A stretch of DNA of 64,000 nt from Dehalococcoidia bacterium (GTDB taxonomy: Bacteria; Chloroflexota; Dehalococcoidia; Plut-88900): contig CBDBLV010000004.1 in NCBI GenBank assembly GCA_965207225.1, positions 320,001-384,000 of the forward strand, in the 5' to 3' direction. A model generated the notes under the pieces. It ran no database searches. It was not told the origin of the DNA and worked only from the letters and a program-made list of their open reading frames with translations. The translations under genes and the position numbers were made by a program. Below, piece after piece: positions 46,191-52,679 of this stretch. Position 1 is the stretch's first letter; every line of letters starts with the position of its first letter.

Positions 46191-47444
46191 TTGCGTATAG
46201 TCCATTTCTCTGATTTGCACATAGGCGTCGAAAATTACGGCCGCCTGGACCCGAGCACGGGCCTTTCGACGCGGATGGGTGACTTCCTTTCGGCGCTGGA
46301 CGAGCTAGTGGAGTATTCGCTGGGCAATGACGTGGATTTGGTGCTTTTTGCCGGGGATGCGTTCAAGAGCCGGGAGCCGAAGCAGACCCAACAGCGGGAG
46401 TTCGCCAAGCGAATAGCCCGGCTGGCAAACGCGGGGATTCAGGTGTTTCTGCTGGTCGGCAACCACGACCTTCCCTACGCGTTGGCCCAGGCCACGGCAA
46501 TCGAGATATACCACACGCTGGAGGTTGAGAACGTAGTCGTGGCCGACAGGGTTGGTACGTGGCGGATAGACACGAAGTCGGGGCCCGTTCAGGTTGTCGG
46601 GCTTCCGTGGCCACGCCGCTCTGTCCTGTTGACCCGGGACATGATCAGGAACCTCACTTTCGACCAGATCAACGACCGGATGCAAACACTTCTTACAGAG
46701 CTGTTGCAGAATGAGGCTGATTCCCTGGACCCATCCGTACCCGCGTTCCTGGCAGCGCATGTAACCGTGGCTCAGGCGACGGTCGGGTCTGAGCGAAGCA
46801 TGATGATTGGAAACGACCACGTGCTTCTCCTCAGTAACGTAGCGTTGCCACAATTCGAATATGTGGCGCTTGGACACATCCATAAGACGCAGGTGTTAAC
46901 GGAGTCGCCGCCGGTGGTTTACAGCGGCAGCATGCAGCGCGTTGACTTCAGTGAGGAGAAGGACCCCAAGGGGTTCTACGTCGTGGATGTCGACGCGGGA
47001 CTGCCACAGGGGAGTCGAGTGACGGGCTACAGGTTTCAGCCTGTCCAAGCCCGACCCTTCCTGACCATTGACGTAGACATTGCCACCGACGACCCCGACC
47101 CTACATCGACCATAGTCAGGCGTATCCAGGACTCGGCGGTGGCGGATGCGGTGGTGCGGCTGCGTATAAAGGTTGCGGCAGAGCTGGAAGCCATGATTAT
47201 TGATTCGGAGATCCGGAAGGCGCTGGCGCCGGCACACTTTGTGGCTTCGATCAACCGGGAGGTGGACAGGACGCGGACATTCAGGCTGGAGGGTCGGGCT
47301 ATTGACGGGATGACTTCGCTCGACGCCCTGAAGGCATATCTTGACGCCTCAGCCGAGGATCGGGGGTGGTCACATTCACAAGTGGACGAGATGCTGGCAC
47401 TGGGCGAAGATCTAATCCGGGAGTCAGGGGAATCCAAGTCCTGA
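46191..47444 (+). CDS. sbcD: SbcD/Mre11 nuclease subunit
   Basis: Motifs HFSDLHIG, AGDAF, GNHD, ALGHIH and YSGSMQRVDFSE. Confidence 0.93.
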   Translation: MRIVHFSDLHIGVENYGRLDPSTGLSTRMGDFLSALDELVEYSLGNDVDLVLFAGDAFKSREPKQTQQREFAKRIARLANAGIQVFLLVGNHDLPYALAQATAIEIYHTLEVENVVVADRVGTWRIDTKSGPVQVVGLPWPRRSVLLTRDMIRNLTFDQINDRMQTLLTELLQNEADSLDPSVPAFLAAHVTVAQATVGSERSMMIGNDHVLLLSNVALPQFEYVALGHIHKTQVLTESPPVVYSGSMQRVDFSEEKDPKGFYVVDVDAGLPQGSRVTGYRFQPVQARPFLTIDVDIATDDPDPTSTIVRRIQDSAVADAVVRLRIKVAAELEAMIIDSEIRKALAPAHFVASINREVDRTRTFRLEGRAIDGMTSLDALKAYLDASAEDRGWSHSQVDEMLALGEDLIRESGESKS

Positions 47445-47484: not shown

Positions 47485-48546
47485 ATGAAAATTTTCGACT
47501 ACATGGAGGAATACGGCTACGAGGAGTTGGCCTTCTACACGGACGAGGCTGCGGGGCTGAGGGCCCTTGTCTGCATCCATGACACGACTCTCGGGCCTGC
47601 ATGCGGAGGGACCCGGATGTGGCCCTTTGCCACTGAGGAAGAGGCAATACTGGATGTGCTGCGGCTGGCGCGGGCCATGACCTATAAGTCCTCGCTGGCG
47701 GGGCTGGACTACGGCGGGGGAAAGGCGGTCATCATCGCCGACCCGACCACCGACAAGTCGGAAGCACTCTTTCGGGCACACGGCCGATTCGTGGACACTC
47801 TGGGCGGGCGGTACTTTACGACTGAGGATGTCGGGATTGTGGCTGAGGACGTAGTAAACATGCGCAAGGAGACGCAATATGCGGTCGGGCTGCCGGAGTC
47901 CCATGGAGGGCTGGGAGGGGCGGAGGTAATCACGGGATATGGTATCTACCGGGGGGCCCGGGCGTGCATGAAGGAGCTCACGGGTTCGGACTCGCTGGAG
48001 GGGAAGACGGTGGCCATCCAGGGTTTCGGGAAGGTTGCCTACCACTACGCTCGACACCTGAAGGAGGACGGGGCACGGATTATAGCCGCAGACATCAACG
48101 AGACCCGTATTGCAGAGGCCGCGGGCATGGGGGCCACTATCGTGGCGCCGGAGGAGATTCACGCTGTCGAATGCGACATCTTTTCACCGTGTGCGCTGGG
48201 TGGGGTGCTGAACGACGAGACGATACCGCAGATCAAGGCTCCAATAGTGGCGGGGGCGGCCAATAACCAGCTACAGGAGCCCCGGCACGCAGAGGCCCTT
48301 GCCGAAGCCGGAATCCTATACGCGCCCGACTACGCCATCAATCCTGGCGGCGTCATAACAGTCGCCTGCGAAATAGAGGGGAAAAGCAAGGATGCAGCCC
48401 TGGAGAAGATCGGCGGGGTACACGACACACTGTTGGACATCTTCGCCCAAGCGAAGGCCAGGGGAATTACGACAGCAGAGGCAGCAGACCGGCTGGCGGA
48501 GGCTAGGATAAGGAGCGTGGCGGGGGTGAAGAAGATCGCGAGGTAG
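47485..48546 (+). CDS. Leucine/valine dehydrogenase (Glu/Leu/Phe/Val dehydrogenase family)
   Basis: IHDTTLGPACGGTR, MTYK, GGGKAVI, QGFGKV, PCALG and GAANNQL. Confidence 0.93.
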   Translation: MKIFDYMEEYGYEELAFYTDEAAGLRALVCIHDTTLGPACGGTRMWPFATEEEAILDVLRLARAMTYKSSLAGLDYGGGKAVIIADPTTDKSEALFRAHGRFVDTLGGRYFTTEDVGIVAEDVVNMRKETQYAVGLPESHGGLGGAEVITGYGIYRGARACMKELTGSDSLEGKTVAIQGFGKVAYHYARHLKEDGARIIAADINETRIAEAAGMGATIVAPEEIHAVECDIFSPCALGGVLNDETIPQIKAPIVAGAANNQLQEPRHAEALAEAGILYAPDYAINPGGVITVACEIEGKSKDAALEKIGGVHDTLLDIFAQAKARGITTAEAADRLAEARIRSVAGVKKIAR

Positions 48547-48552
48547 GGTTCT

Positions 48553-49305
48553 CTAGGGTTCGCGGATCTTGGTACGGGCGTCGTGGGGGTAGGTGTTGGT
48601 CTCGATCATGCGGGCCTTGACTGCGGTGCGGAGGAGCAGCAGCTCCTCGTCGGAGATTTGGGGTGTCATGGGTGCTTGCTCGGCGGTGCCCTTGATCGAG
48701 AGGTCGAAGCCCGTGTTGTCCCTCACTTCTTCCAGGGTGTGACCCTGATGCACCGAGGCCAGTTCGAGGTGTCCCGACTCCCGGGAGAGCTCCATGCGGG
48801 CCATGGGGGTTACAACTATCACCTCCCTGTTGCGTCGGGAGAATCCCTCGGGGGAAGAGGCGGAAGCGGAGACGTAATCTACTTTTTCGACGAAGGTGCG
48901 ACGGTCGTGGCGGGTGCGGAATAGGACGACTTTCGGGACGGCGTAGTAGAGGAGGCCGGAGCCGTACTGGCCGGGCATCCTGACGTCCGGGGCGTCGGGG
49001 TCTCCGATGAGCTGGAGGTTGAAGTTGGCCTCTCGGTCTATCTCTATACCGCTTAAGAAGAAAAGGTCGAGCTTGCCGCGCTGGGCCAGGTAATGAAAGT
49101 CTTTGCCGCCCACGAAGGGGTTGTAGTAGTCGCTGTCCAGGATTATGAACTCACCGTTGGGGGCGTGGGAGGCCTCGGCGAGGAGGAGGGCGCAGGCGGG
49201 GATGAAGGAGAGGGCGCCGCAGGCAGAGGTCTCCCAATCCCGCACCTCCCGGGACAGGAGGACGGCCATGAATTCTTCGAAGGCGCAGTCGGGAGAGAGG
49301 GTCAC
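48553..49305 (-). CDS. Family I CoA-transferase beta subunit (GctB-like)
   Basis: DLFFLSGIEIDREANFNL, PG-x-x-GS, HDRRTFVEKVDYVS and VRDNTGF. Confidence 0.85.
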   Translation of the reverse strand: MTLSPDCAFEEFMAVLLSREVRDWETSACGALSFIPACALLLAEASHAPNGEFIILDSDYYNPFVGGKDFHYLAQRGKLDLFFLSGIEIDREANFNLQLIGDPDAPDVRMPGQYGSGLLYYAVPKVVLFRTRHDRRTFVEKVDYVSASASSPEGFSRRNREVIVVTPMARMELSRESGHLELASVHQGHTLEEVRDNTGFDLSIKGTAEQAPMTPQISDEELLLLRTAVKARMIETNTYPHDARTKIREP

Positions 49306-50174
49306 TAGCCTACAGCGGCGGGGATTTCCACGCCCAGGCCCCTGGCCCGGCAGTAACTCTCATGGTCGTTGAAGGCGAATACCTCGGCGGCGAGGTAGTC
49401 CTGGAAGGCGTCATCGGATGAGGAAGCTTCCAAGTACTTCTTCATCTCGTCAACGTCCATGGCGTAATGGCCGGGGCACGCGCTGGGGAAGGCGCCAAAG
49501 GGGGCGTGGGCCACGGCTTTGACGTGAATGGCCGGGATGTAGGTACCGGAAGGGTCGTCGGGGGAGACCTGATCGACTATCTCTTCGACAGTGACGATAA
49601 CCCGGTCCGAGGCTTGAGCCAGCATCAGGGCTTCTCCGCCCTTCTTGACGAGCACGTTGCCTCGCCTGTCAGCCTTGGTGCCGTGGAAGAGGGCCACGTC
49701 GGGGTTGATGGCCTTGGCCATAACTATCGGCTCGGAGGGGTTGAAAGGGTTGGGGGCGATGGTGAAGTCATCTCGTTGGCTAATCACGTCGCTGTTGGCG
49801 TAGCCGAGGGTCGGGACGAAGGGGATGCCCATTGATCCAGCCTGGACCATGCTGTAGAGAACGCCTCAGGTATTGTCCTTCATCTTGACCCGGCCCTCCT
49901 TCTGGAGGCGCAGGTAGTTGGGGGCGACCCGGGCGAAGGGTTGGAAGTTGAAGTCGCAGGTCTCAACGGTGGCGGTACGGCCGGCCCCGACGAGGAAGTC
50001 GAGGTTCATGGAAGCGCCGACCACGCCGACAGTGTTGAGCTCCGTGGTCTCGCCGCGGACGATCTCGCGGAGGAGGGCCATGGGGGTATTGTCCAGGCCA
50101 CCCATCATGATCACCTTGTCACCGGTGCGTACCAGGCTGGCGGCTTGTTCCAGGGTTACTAGTTTCTCTCTCAT
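49305..50174 (-). CDS. Family I CoA-transferase alpha subunit (GctA-like) with in-frame UGA at codon 103 (possible selenocysteine)
   Basis: ORFs 49866-50174 and 49305-49850 are in the same frame and are joined by TGA-GVLYS, giving 289 aa. Motifs KLVTLEQA, AG-x-MGIPFVP, AINPDVALFH, ADRRGNV and PFGAFP. Confidence 0.75.
49833..49849 (-). promoter_or_regulatory. Putative bacterial SECIS hairpin
   Basis: mRNA UGGUCCA-GGC-UGGAUCA; the G-starting loop lies 23 nt after the UGA. Confidence 0.5.
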
Positions 50175-50282
50175 CTGTGCTTCATTCCCTTCATCGAACC
50201 CAGAGCCTGTACAACGTTGGACTCAGGTTATATTTCGACACTGTGGGTGTCAAGGCAGGAGTGGCGGAGGTCATGGGCACCT

Positions 50283-52679
50283 TTAGGTTGGGGTGCGGGC
50301 GCGGGCGCCGCCGAGTCGGGCCTGCACCCGACGCCAGACCATCCTGAATTCACCCTTCTCCCACATGACGAGCACCTGCGGGCCGATCAGCATGGAGCTG
50401 TAGGTACCGGCGAGGACACCTATAAGCAGCACCAGTATGAAGGGCAGGAGGGTCCCGCCGCCGAACAGGACTAGGGCGAGCAGAGTAAACAGTGTTGTGA
50501 GGCTGGTGTTGACTGAGCGGCCCATGGTCTCAAGCAGGCTGTTGTTAACCGTGACCTCGAAGGGGTCGCCGGTGCGCCTTAGCATGTTCTCCCTGATGCG
50601 GTCGAAGACGACGATGGTGTTGTTAATGCTGTAGCCGATGACGGCAAGGATAGCCGTGATGACCATGGTGTTGAGCTCGACGCCAAAGACCTTGCCGAGC
50701 AGGGAGAAGAGGCCGAGGACGATCAGAACGTCATGGGCGAGGGCAAAGACGGCCGCGGCGCTGTAGCGGAAGAAATGGGGCATCTTGCGGAAAGCCCACG
50801 CTATGTACAGGAATATACCGATGATGGCGAAGAACACGGCCAGAGCGGCGTTGCGCACCATTTCGGCGGCGACGATGGGAGAAACGAAGTCCACCTCGAA
50901 GCGGTCTATGCTGGTGGGGCCGAAACGTTGGGCGAAGGCCTGCTGAATGAGCTGGCTATCGGAAGGCCCGACATTGCCATCCTGGTCAATCTCGCCCTGG
51001 CCTAGGGTCTCGGTGCGGATGAGGAAGGCGTTGGTCTCCAGGGCCTGGACGATGGCGTCGCCGTGGCCCAGTTCCTCCAACTCTTGCCGCACAGCTGTTA
51101 CCGTTACTTCTCCACCTGTGAGCCGGTCGCGGTCGGCGGGGTTGATGAAGCGGACCTCGATGGTGGAGCCGCTGGAGAACTCGATGCCGGTGTTGAAAGC
51201 CGGGGGGAATATGAGAGACACGATACCCGGAAGTATCACGGCACCGGAGATTGCAAAGTACCAGAACCTCCTGTTGACGACGTTGATGCGGCGGCCGGGG
51301 GTGGGGTCCTGGGGGGTGTCGGCCAGGGTCTTGGGCACGCCGAATACTCCGGGCTTCTCCTGGGCCCAGGAGCCGACGAAGAATCTCAGGAAGCTGCGGG
51401 TGACGAACATGGCGGAGAACATGCTGGTGACGATGCCAATGGCGAGGGTGATGGCGAATCCGGTGACCAGGGGGGTGCCCAGCTTGTCGCCGAACCACCA
51501 GAGAATGGCGCAGGTTATGAGGGTGGATACGTTGCTGTCGCGGATGGCCACCCAGGCCCGGTTGAATCCGGCTTCGATAGCGACGCGGAGGCTACGGCCG
51601 GCGCGGAGCTCCTCTTTCAGACGTTCGAAGATGAGGACATTCGCGTCGACGGCCATGCCGATGGACAGGATGAACCCGGCGATGCCGGAGAGGGTAAGGG
51701 TGACGGGGAGCAGCTTGAAGGTGGACAGGACCACGAGGCCGTAGACGATGAGGGCGCCGGCGGAAAGGACGCCCGGGAGCCTGTAGTAGACCATCAGGAA
51801 ACCCAGGACAAGGAGCAATCCCACTATGCCCGCCACCATGCTCTTGTTGACCGACTCGGCGCCGAGGGTGGCATCGACGTCCTGCTCTCGGATGAGCTGG
51901 ATAGGAATCGGCAAGGCACCGGCGTTGAGCTGGATGGCGAGGTCATCAGCCTGTTCGATGCTAAGACCGGTGATTACACCGTTTCTGGATATGACCGCCT
52001 GGACCACGGGGTCGGAAATCAAAAGGCCGTCCAGGTGGATTCCCAGGGGCTGGTTGAGGAGCCTGCTGGTGATGTTTTCGAACATCCTGGCGCCTTCGCT
52101 GTTGAACTCGAAGGCGACCTGGGGAAGGTTGGTTGCAGGGTCTAGCACGACCTGGGAATTCGGCAGCATGTATTCGCCTGTGAGGGGGACCAGCTGGCCG
52201 GTATCGTTTGGAGCTAGGACGGGGTCCCAGATGATGCTGCCGGTCTGGGGGTCGGTGACGAAGGTGCCATCTTCCTGTCGCCGCTGCTCTCGGAAGTCGA
52301 GCTGGGCGGTGCGGCCGATAAGGCTCTTGGCCCGCTCCACGTCCCGGATACCGGGGATCTGTACCATGATCCGGTCGTCGCCAACTCTTTGGACTATGGG
52401 CTCGGAGACTCCGAAGGCGTCGACGCGGTTGCGGATGATGCTGATAACGCCCTCGACCTGGGAGTCGGTGACGGCTTCACCTTCGGGGGGTTGGGCCTCA
52501 TAGACGAGGTGGGTGCCGCCCCGGATGTCGAGTCCCTGTCGGAAGCCGACCCTGTCGATGCCGGGCGTCTTGTCGGGGAGCAGGACCACGAGACCGGCTA
52601 TGAATATGAGGCCGATCATGATCAGACAAAGGGTGTTCCCCTTCGGGATAAGCCTGTATAGCCTGAGTAGACCTAGCAA
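50283..52679 (-). CDS. secDF: Protein translocase SecDF fusion
   Basis: GLDIRGG, LNAGALP, GMAVDANVLIFER, GIEFSSG and GYSINNTIVVFDRIRE. Exact start uncertain. Confidence 0.95.
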   Translation of the reverse strand: MLGLLRLYRLIPKGNTLCLIMIGLIFIAGLVVLLPDKTPGIDRVGFRQGLDIRGGTHLVYEAQPPEGEAVTDSQVEGVISIIRNRVDAFGVSEPIVQRVGDDRIMVQIPGIRDVERAKSLIGRTAQLDFREQRRQEDGTFVTDPQTGSIIWDPVLAPNDTGQLVPLTGEYMLPNSQVVLDPATNLPQVAFEFNSEGARMFENITSRLLNQPLGIHLDGLLISDPVVQAVISRNGVITGLSIEQADDLAIQLNAGALPIPIQLIREQDVDATLGAESVNKSMVAGIVGLLLVLGFLMVYYRLPGVLSAGALIVYGLVVLSTFKLLPVTLTLSGIAGFILSIGMAVDANVLIFERLKEELRAGRSLRVAIEAGFNRAWVAIRDSNVSTLITCAILWWFGDKLGTPLVTGFAITLAIGIVTSMFSAMFVTRSFLRFFVGSWAQEKPGVFGVPKTLADTPQDPTPGRRINVVNRRFWYFAISGAVILPGIVSLIFPPAFNTGIEFSSGSTIEVRFINPADRDRLTGGEVTVTAVRQELEELGHGDAIVQALETNAFLIRTETLGQGEIDQDGNVGPSDSQLIQQAFAQRFGPTSIDRFEVDFVSPIVAAEMVRNAALAVFFAIIGIFLYIAWAFRKMPHFFRYSAAAVFALAHDVLIVLGLFSLLGKVFGVELNTMVITAILAVIGYSINNTIVVFDRIRENMLRRTGDPFEVTVNNSLLETMGRSVNTSLTTLFTLLALVLFGGGTLLPFILVLLIGVLAGTYSSMLIGPQVLVMWEKGEFRMVWRRVQARLGGARARTPT

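Follow-up and report, generated by a model that had tools for sequence, protein, structure and literature searches.

The closest described relatives of the gene pair analyzed here are heterodimeric enzymes with the family I coenzyme A (CoA)-transferase fold. IpdAB is known from Rhodococcus jostii RHA1 and Mycobacterium tuberculosis as a COCHEA-CoA ring-cleaving hydrolase (PDB 6CO6, 6CO9, 6COJ, 6CON). According to the accessible text of PMC5380842, a glutamate on the beta subunit is essential to type I CoA-transferases, such as Glu54 in GctB, and IpdAB carries no transferase glutamate (Gly57-beta) and displays no transferase activity. In Myxococcus xanthus, 3-methylglutaconyl-CoA is decarboxylated by AibA/AibB (PDB 5MZW-5N03), whose beta subunit has Cys56 in place of the catalytic glutamate; this cysteine was proposed as general acid in the accessible part of PMC7756340. 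A gene pair of this fold was examined in a 64,000-nucleotide stretch of a Dehalococcoidia bacterium genome (GenBank assembly GCA_965207225.1, contig CBDBLV010000004.1, positions 320,001 to 384,000; the whole stretch is called the window), and its alpha subunit gene holds an in-frame TGA at codon 103. The interpretation of this TGA as a conserved selenocysteine (Sec) codon, and thus of the gene as recoded, was well supported by comparison of homologous sequences. The features of the locus in window positions are as follows.

49305..50174, minus strand: alpha subunit gene of a predicted heterodimer with the CoA-transferase fold; 289 codons and a terminal stop, with UGA as codon 103
49866..49868, minus strand: in-frame UGA, codon 103, predicted to be read as selenocysteine (U103)
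49833..49849, minus strand: hairpin UGGUCCA-GGC-UGGAUCA, resembling a selenocysteine insertion sequence (SECIS), with a 7-bp stem that starts 16 nt after the UGA
48553..49305, minus strand: beta subunit gene with a GTG start, Pfam CoA_trans (PF01144) domain at E 7.3e-9, and PDB matches to GctB, AibB and IpdB

The alpha frame, read on the minus strand from window position 50174 to 49305, was ...RVKMKDNT-TGA-GVLYSMVQAGSMGIPF..., with a single internal TGA and no frameshift. The two open reading frames that the original prediction had joined into one frame of 289 amino acids were thus found to be continuous when the frame was read again with TGA at codon 103, while the listing of open reading frames cuts the gene into pieces of 102 and 181 residues. 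The read-through alpha protein was recognized as one Pfam CoA_trans (PF01144) domain covering residues 7-223 (E 2.1e-15). The alpha stop and the beta start share one base in the sequence TAGTG (window 49303-49307), and this overlap suggests translational coupling of the two subunits. The alpha and beta genes were adjacent in all 18 diverse loci that were compared with their 8-kb flanks, and in most of these loci they abut or overlap. Neither a promoter nor a terminator was found in the scan of window positions 48300-50500.

The column of U103 was located in 49 homologous loci, and TGA was present in 32, Cys codons (TGC/TGT) in 7 and codons for other residues in 10, with TAA and TAG in none. 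The 32 distinct TGA genes came from at least nine GTDB families and went down to 34% protein identity, with TGA kept in the identical column; the 10 loci with other residues were more distant paralogues that carried Gly, Asn, His or Leu there. Among full-length proteins in the database, the nearest relatives (P0013 and P0014) have DNTCG at this site, which bore out the motif D-x-T-C that had previously been given for homologues, and within the clade of the alpha protein codon 103 was Cys or TGA and not Trp, Arg or Gly. The species-level genome collection yielded 8 same-genus genomes, with 84-97% protein identity, and all 8 had TGA at codon 103 in a frame that was otherwise open. For the class as a whole, 401 Dehalococcoidia genomes were sampled and a homologue at E <= 1e-20 was detected in 170 of them (the tally includes the unpublished genome G243); among the matches listed, at least 54 of the 401 genomes had a match with exactly one TGA, and these 54 include one genome that also has TAG and one that is represented by a contig-end fragment. 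The homologue with TAG besides TGA (G114:C1:12532-13374) may have a real defect or reflect an alignment overrun at the gene end. One TGA-form gene was spread over two contig ends near the hairpin region (G337:C23:1-351 and G337:C50:11577-12059), apparently because of an assembly break. In a phylum-wide sample of 301 Chloroflexota genomes (E <= 1e-42), the family was detected only in two Dehalococcoidia genomes.

Genes are most often damaged by a single in-frame stop, and the TGA could in principle mark a pseudogene, a strain-private nonsense mutation or a sequencing error. Its recurrence in every same-genus genome and across the class, as counted above, speaks against a private event. Selection on the two parts of the gene was also compared by the ratio of nonsynonymous to synonymous substitution rates (dN/dS). 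Over 36 pairs of nine same-genus genes, the median dN/dS was 0.068 for the part before the TGA and 0.090 for the part after it, and these low values (below 0.1 on either side) indicate purifying selection on both sides, so that both parts appear to be translated and constrained. Contigs from a second study (four runs examined) bridge codon 103 and give weak support, and no variant at this codon appeared among the 40 of 129 differences listed for these contigs. For practical purposes the comparative data refute a defective or misread gene, and its probability was considered negligible.

C-terminal pieces of 169-189 residues accounted for 71 of the 120 protein-database matches listed, which indicates that gene callers stop at the codon-103 TGA everywhere. 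Pieces of this kind are also what a truly split gene would give, in which translation stops at the UGA and restarts at an ATG six codons on (window 49850), so that pieces of 102 and 181 residues assemble without selenium; the closeness of this ATG to the TGA fits such a restart. However, a plain stop codon would be expected to drift among TGA, TAA and TAG, yet TGA was found in 32 of 32 copies, and relatives have Cys codons in the same column. The restart is not conserved either, since subgroups reading DSG/DST-U-P have Leu or Gly at the position of that Met. The AlphaFold2 model places residue 103 mid-domain, as the first residue of a helix, and the hairpin downstream is kept with compensatory changes only in TGA forms. 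A split gene was accordingly judged to be very improbable, and the Sec codon was retained as the explanation of the interrupted frame.

The criteria of bSECISearch describe a stem-loop shortly downstream of the UGA with a G in the apical loop. The hairpin of the original prediction, UGGUCCA-GGC-UGGAUCA at 16 nt after the UGA, was found as described, with the loop GGC and 23 nt between the UGA and the first loop G. To compare the hairpin, the 32 TGA forms were aligned without gaps over 63 nt, and all of them share an invariant UCCAGGC-N-GG. Two of the stem pairs varied in a compensatory way: pair 28:40 was CG in 16 forms, GU in 14 and AU in 2 and was never unpaired, and pair 26:42 was UA in 15, GC in 8, CG in 4, GU in 1 and UG in 1, with 3 forms unpaired. 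The covariation score of the hairpin was 0.273, compared with 0.100 in shuffles (0 of 500 reached 0.273) and at most 0.116 when the partners were slid. As two further outer pairs were mostly unpaired in the TGA forms, the helix consists of 7 pairs, of which an average of 6.75 formed in the TGA forms compared with 3.35 in 17 non-TGA homologues. Codon usage showed the same region to be restricted: 14 close genes used a single codon at each position from +7 to +11 (V-Q-A-G-S), whereas three or four codons were used for the neighbouring Gly and Pro. Behaviour like that of a SECIS element is supported by these compensatory pairs, by the loss of pairing in non-TGA homologues and by the frozen synonymous sites.

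The machinery for Sec insertion was present in the genome. The genes selA (556 bits) and selB (359 bits summed over two matched stretches) were detected, together with a tRNA-Sec (66 bits with Rfam; tRNA-SeC with anticodon tca by ARAGORN) and selD. The selD gene (G000:C5:649975-650898, locus L012) is a selenoprotein gene itself, which reads HCAG-U-ASK around its in-frame TGA, and its hairpin of 8 bp has the 3-nt, G-first loop GUG and lies 19 nt after the UGA, the same build as that of the alpha hairpin. The alpha gene therefore resembles SelB-dependent selenoprotein genes, selD of the same genome included, in its in-frame UGA, its G-first-loop hairpin 16-19 nt downstream and its Cys homologues, but it differs from them in that the U103 site has no UxxC/CxxU redox motif. 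Among other genomes, selA was detected in 5 of 5 with the TGA form, compared with 3 of 5 with the Cys form only.

UGA reassignment is generally known to exist in some uncultured bacteria, and codon 103 might accordingly be read as another amino acid (Trp, Cys or Gly), through a reassigned code or near-cognate read-through. In the window, however, TGA terminated 6 of 39 long frames, which makes it an ordinary stop elsewhere, and long genes such as the 798-codon secDF contain no internal TGA. A dedicated tRNA-Sec with selA, selB and selD, as found in this genome, likewise argues against another amino acid, and under global reassignment a site-specific hairpin would be pointless. Insertion of a different amino acid was regarded as extremely unlikely, and Sec remained the favoured residue. 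Other TGA-interrupted frames were looked for in the window, and a crude scan gave 42 candidates; the five that were tested, one of them reading VPG-TGA-LEC, had no family matches and look antisense. Taken with the conserved TGA, the Cys relatives, the hairpin and the dN/dS values, the Sec genes lend support to the candidate selenoprotein that had been proposed from the window alone.

The read-through alpha protein was modelled by AlphaFold2 as one compact domain, with a predicted local distance difference test score of 92.2 and a predicted template modelling (TM) score of 0.90. In this model residue 103 opens helix 103-115, which follows strand 97-100. Foldseek and phmmer agreed on the top relatives of alpha, which were GctA (TM 0.87, E 1.5e-30), IpdA (TM 0.86) and AibA (TM 0.79). 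GctAB of Acidaminococcus fermentans (PDB 1POI) was thus the best match in both sequence and fold, at 30% identity, and its genes share the order alpha then beta with the pair in the window. At the position of the transferase catalytic glutamate, however, most of the 18 beta sequences had Gly, the one in the window had Asp and another had Ser, and Glu or Asp was not conserved there, while GctB has the catalytic Glu54 (accessible text of PMC5380842); in alpha, GctA has Gln opposite U103. The earlier label of a GctA-like CoA-transferase was therefore upheld for the fold and the best match, but a working CoA-transferase is probably not what the pair encodes. Because beta is without the catalytic glutamate, the alpha-beta pair is most likely an IpdAB-like acyl-CoA-processing enzyme and not a transferase, as judged from the alignments. 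The NCBIfam models (release 20) gave sub-threshold transferase matches only, and no selenoprotein model fitted alpha.

The position of U103 is shared with a residue of IpdA that has been mutated in a structure. In the phmmer alignment, U103 faces the only position at which 6co6_A (Glu) and 6coj_A (Ala) are not identical, and the title of PDB entry 6coj is 'IpdAB E105A COCHEA-CoA complex'. A catalytic role of IpdA Glu105 was reportedly described by Crowe et al. in 2018. Across 97 homologues the U103 column contained U in 32, E in 25, C in 23, G in 9, N in 6, L in 1 and H in 1. In a tree from a quick maximum-likelihood search, a clade of 42 sequences (support of 100 in the Shimodaira-Hasegawa-like approximate likelihood ratio test) had only U (32) and C (10) at position 103, with the Glu, Gly and Asn forms outside it, and the well-supported branches forced at least four switches between U and C. 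The likeness to IpdAB thus covers two subunits of the family I CoA-transferase fold, a special residue on alpha in a shared alignment column, and beta subunits that both lack the transferase glutamate (for IpdB, accessible text of PMC5380842). The two systems differ in that IpdA has Glu105 where Sec or Cys occurs here, the alpha identity is just 23%, and the U/C clade branches apart from those that carry Glu. AibAB is also alike in fold and in being a non-transferase, but its Cys56 is on beta, at a position where beta of the present pair lacks Cys, and AibA has Gly at the U103 column.

The recoding could be real in a genuine CoA-transferase or thioesterase, with Sec serving as a non-catalytic redox switch or CoA-thiol-binding residue near the active site. 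Such a role would suit the closeness of alpha to GctA in sequence and fold, the CoA-ester metabolism suggested by nearby family III CoA-transferase genes, and the predominance of redox proteins among known selenoproteins (accessible part of PMC13188914). It is opposed by the beta subunits, in which the glutamate described as essential to type I transferases in the accessible text of PMC5380842 is replaced by Gly, Asp or Ser, and by the alternation of U, C and E in the U103 column, where E is the IpdA Glu105 position. A second conserved Cys was likewise absent from the alignments of alpha and beta in the U/C clade, and thus no built-in redox pair is present and a conserved partner Cys for a switch is missing. 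A non-catalytic Sec in a true transferase was therefore considered unlikely, and the catalytic Sec or Cys of an IpdAB-like non-transferase was preferred.

A mechanism can be outlined on this basis. Most likely, the UGA at codon 103 would be decoded by Sec-tRNA(Sec) delivered by SelB, which the small hairpin 16 nt past this codon would recruit; the product would be the full-length alpha protein of 289 residues. Alpha would then pair with beta from the overlapping gene to form a heterodimer of the family I CoA-transferase fold, as gene adjacency and homology suggest. The reactive residue would lie on alpha at the IpdA Glu105 position, here Sec and in relatives Cys, at the N-terminal end of a helix, as the alignment indicates. 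Speculatively, the selenolate may act directly on the acyl group of the bound acyl-CoA, with covalent nucleophilic catalysis as the likeliest mode. By attacking a carbonyl or an activated double bond it might form a selenoester intermediate that would then be hydrolysed, and the step would be either hydrolytic or a retro-Claisen-like C-C cleavage. A proton transfer or decarboxylation like that of AibAB would be the second option.

As a joint explanation, a Sec codon in alpha and an IpdAB-like non-transferase enzyme in which Sec or Cys is catalytic was considered quite probable, and several points weigh against it. The decoding of Sec is deduced from the comparison between copies, with selenium in the protein predicted, and no RNA sequencing runs containing the alpha gene were listed. 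The hairpin is short, with 7 pairs. The 71-nt hairpin stretch did not stand out by folding energy (z = 0.66; 158 of 200 shuffles fold as well), and the Rfam scan of 49700-49950 with E up to 10 found no SECIS family and one chance miRNA match on the other strand; the significance of the hairpin comes only from comparison with other copies. The sequences in the covariation counts are related, and the shuffle control consequently overstates the significance. The Q-A-G peptide of the hairpin region is itself conserved, which means that part of the nucleotide conservation is not due to constraint on RNA. For the active site, Glu105 of IpdA, which we take to be a catalytic base, is documented by the structures only as a mutated residue in a substrate complex, and with no conserved partner Cys U103 could act as a nucleophile, in acid-base catalysis, or in redox chemistry together with an external thiol. 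Finally, the gene neighbourhoods are heterogeneous, with the top neighbour in just 7 of the 18 loci, and the proposed chemistry is consequently left without direct support from them.

The recurrent neighbours in the 18 loci were family III CoA-transferases (7 loci), ATP-binding cassette (ABC) ATPases (6), major facilitator superfamily (MFS) transporters (5) and Leu/Val-type dehydrogenases (4, including the convergent gene at window 47485-48546). Short-chain dehydrogenases, luciferase-like monooxygenases and acyl-CoA dehydrogenases each recurred in 3 of the loci, as did a flavin mononucleotide (FMN)-type TIM-barrel gene directly after beta, the latter within one genus. These neighbours point to catabolism of CoA-activated organic acids, with no substrate named. 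The steroid-catabolic genes echA20, fadA6 and ipdC, which are neighbours in the IpdAB system, were not seen among the recurrent neighbours of the 18 loci. The ipdC gene beside ipdAB encodes an FMN-type reductase. In loci L090, L091 and L092 (the g9 group genus), an IMPDH/FMN-dependent dehydrogenase/NMO TIM-barrel gene follows beta, about 1.6-3.0 kb past the alpha start. The genes flanking the pair in the window are listed below, and those called putative were named from their translations.

46191..47444, plus strand: putative metallophosphoesterase
47485..48546, plus strand: Glu/Leu/Phe/Val-dehydrogenase family gene, convergent to beta
50283..52679, minus strand: putative SecDF-type fused translocase subunit of 798 aa
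52801..53292, minus strand: putative peptide deformylase

A homologue of the dehydrogenase gene at 47485-48546 occupies the same place in locus L082 and lies about 3-4 kb upstream of alpha in loci L089 and L096. This dehydrogenase could point to the chemistry of branched-chain amino acids or acyl-CoA, and its position beside the pair in the window fits the branched-chain acyl-CoA chemistry of AibAB. The gap from the secDF-like gene to the alpha start is 108 nt, which makes co-transcription of the two genes possible.

Many selenoproteins have a thioredoxin-like fold. To our knowledge, no member of the large Cys/Sec and Glu branches of the IpdAB-like family has been characterised except in steroid breakdown. 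The Sec/Cys branch of these IpdAB-like, glutamate-less CoA-transferase-fold enzymes appears to be an uncatalogued selenoprotein family. In the 2026 inventory of prokaryotic selenoproteins (PMC13188914), neither the complete Table 1 nor the searched text contains an entry for a CoA-transferase, PF01144, glutaconate or IpdA, and PF01144 thus stands outside the 119 families listed there, in contrast to established SelB-dependent selenoprotein genes. A CoA-transferase-fold family was likewise not found in the accessible texts of a 2022 review (PMC9312934), the GOS study (PMC2398784), deep-Sep (PMC12013277) and BSepDB (PMC13326102), whose supplements could list it, and full-text searches linking selenocysteine or selenoprotein with CoA-transferase terms gave only unrelated papers. 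Heavy use of Sec in the class is already known, since Dehalococcoidia metagenome-assembled genomes with 46-49 selenoproteins each are described in the accessible part of the BSepDB paper (PMC13326102).

In its furthest form, the proposal is that alpha belongs to the first selenoenzyme of the CoA-transferase fold, a non-redox one whose selenolate, at the position of the glutamate base of IpdAB, would attack a keto- or enoyl-acyl-CoA, cut a C-C bond through a selenoester and thereby open alicyclic or branched CoA-activated acids in the selenoprotein-rich Dehalococcoidia; this version is tentative and was held to be rather doubtful. Public records split the alpha gene into a 102-residue piece and a piece of about 180 residues, and metabolic reconstructions of Dehalococcoidia consequently miss or misname the enzyme of at least about one seventh of the sampled genomes (at least 54 of 401, among the matches listed). 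If the reading is true, an acyl-CoA-processing enzyme would carry Sec at its catalytic site, at a position that switches between Sec and Cys over evolution and is Glu in other relatives, and the enzyme chemistry of selenium would be wider.

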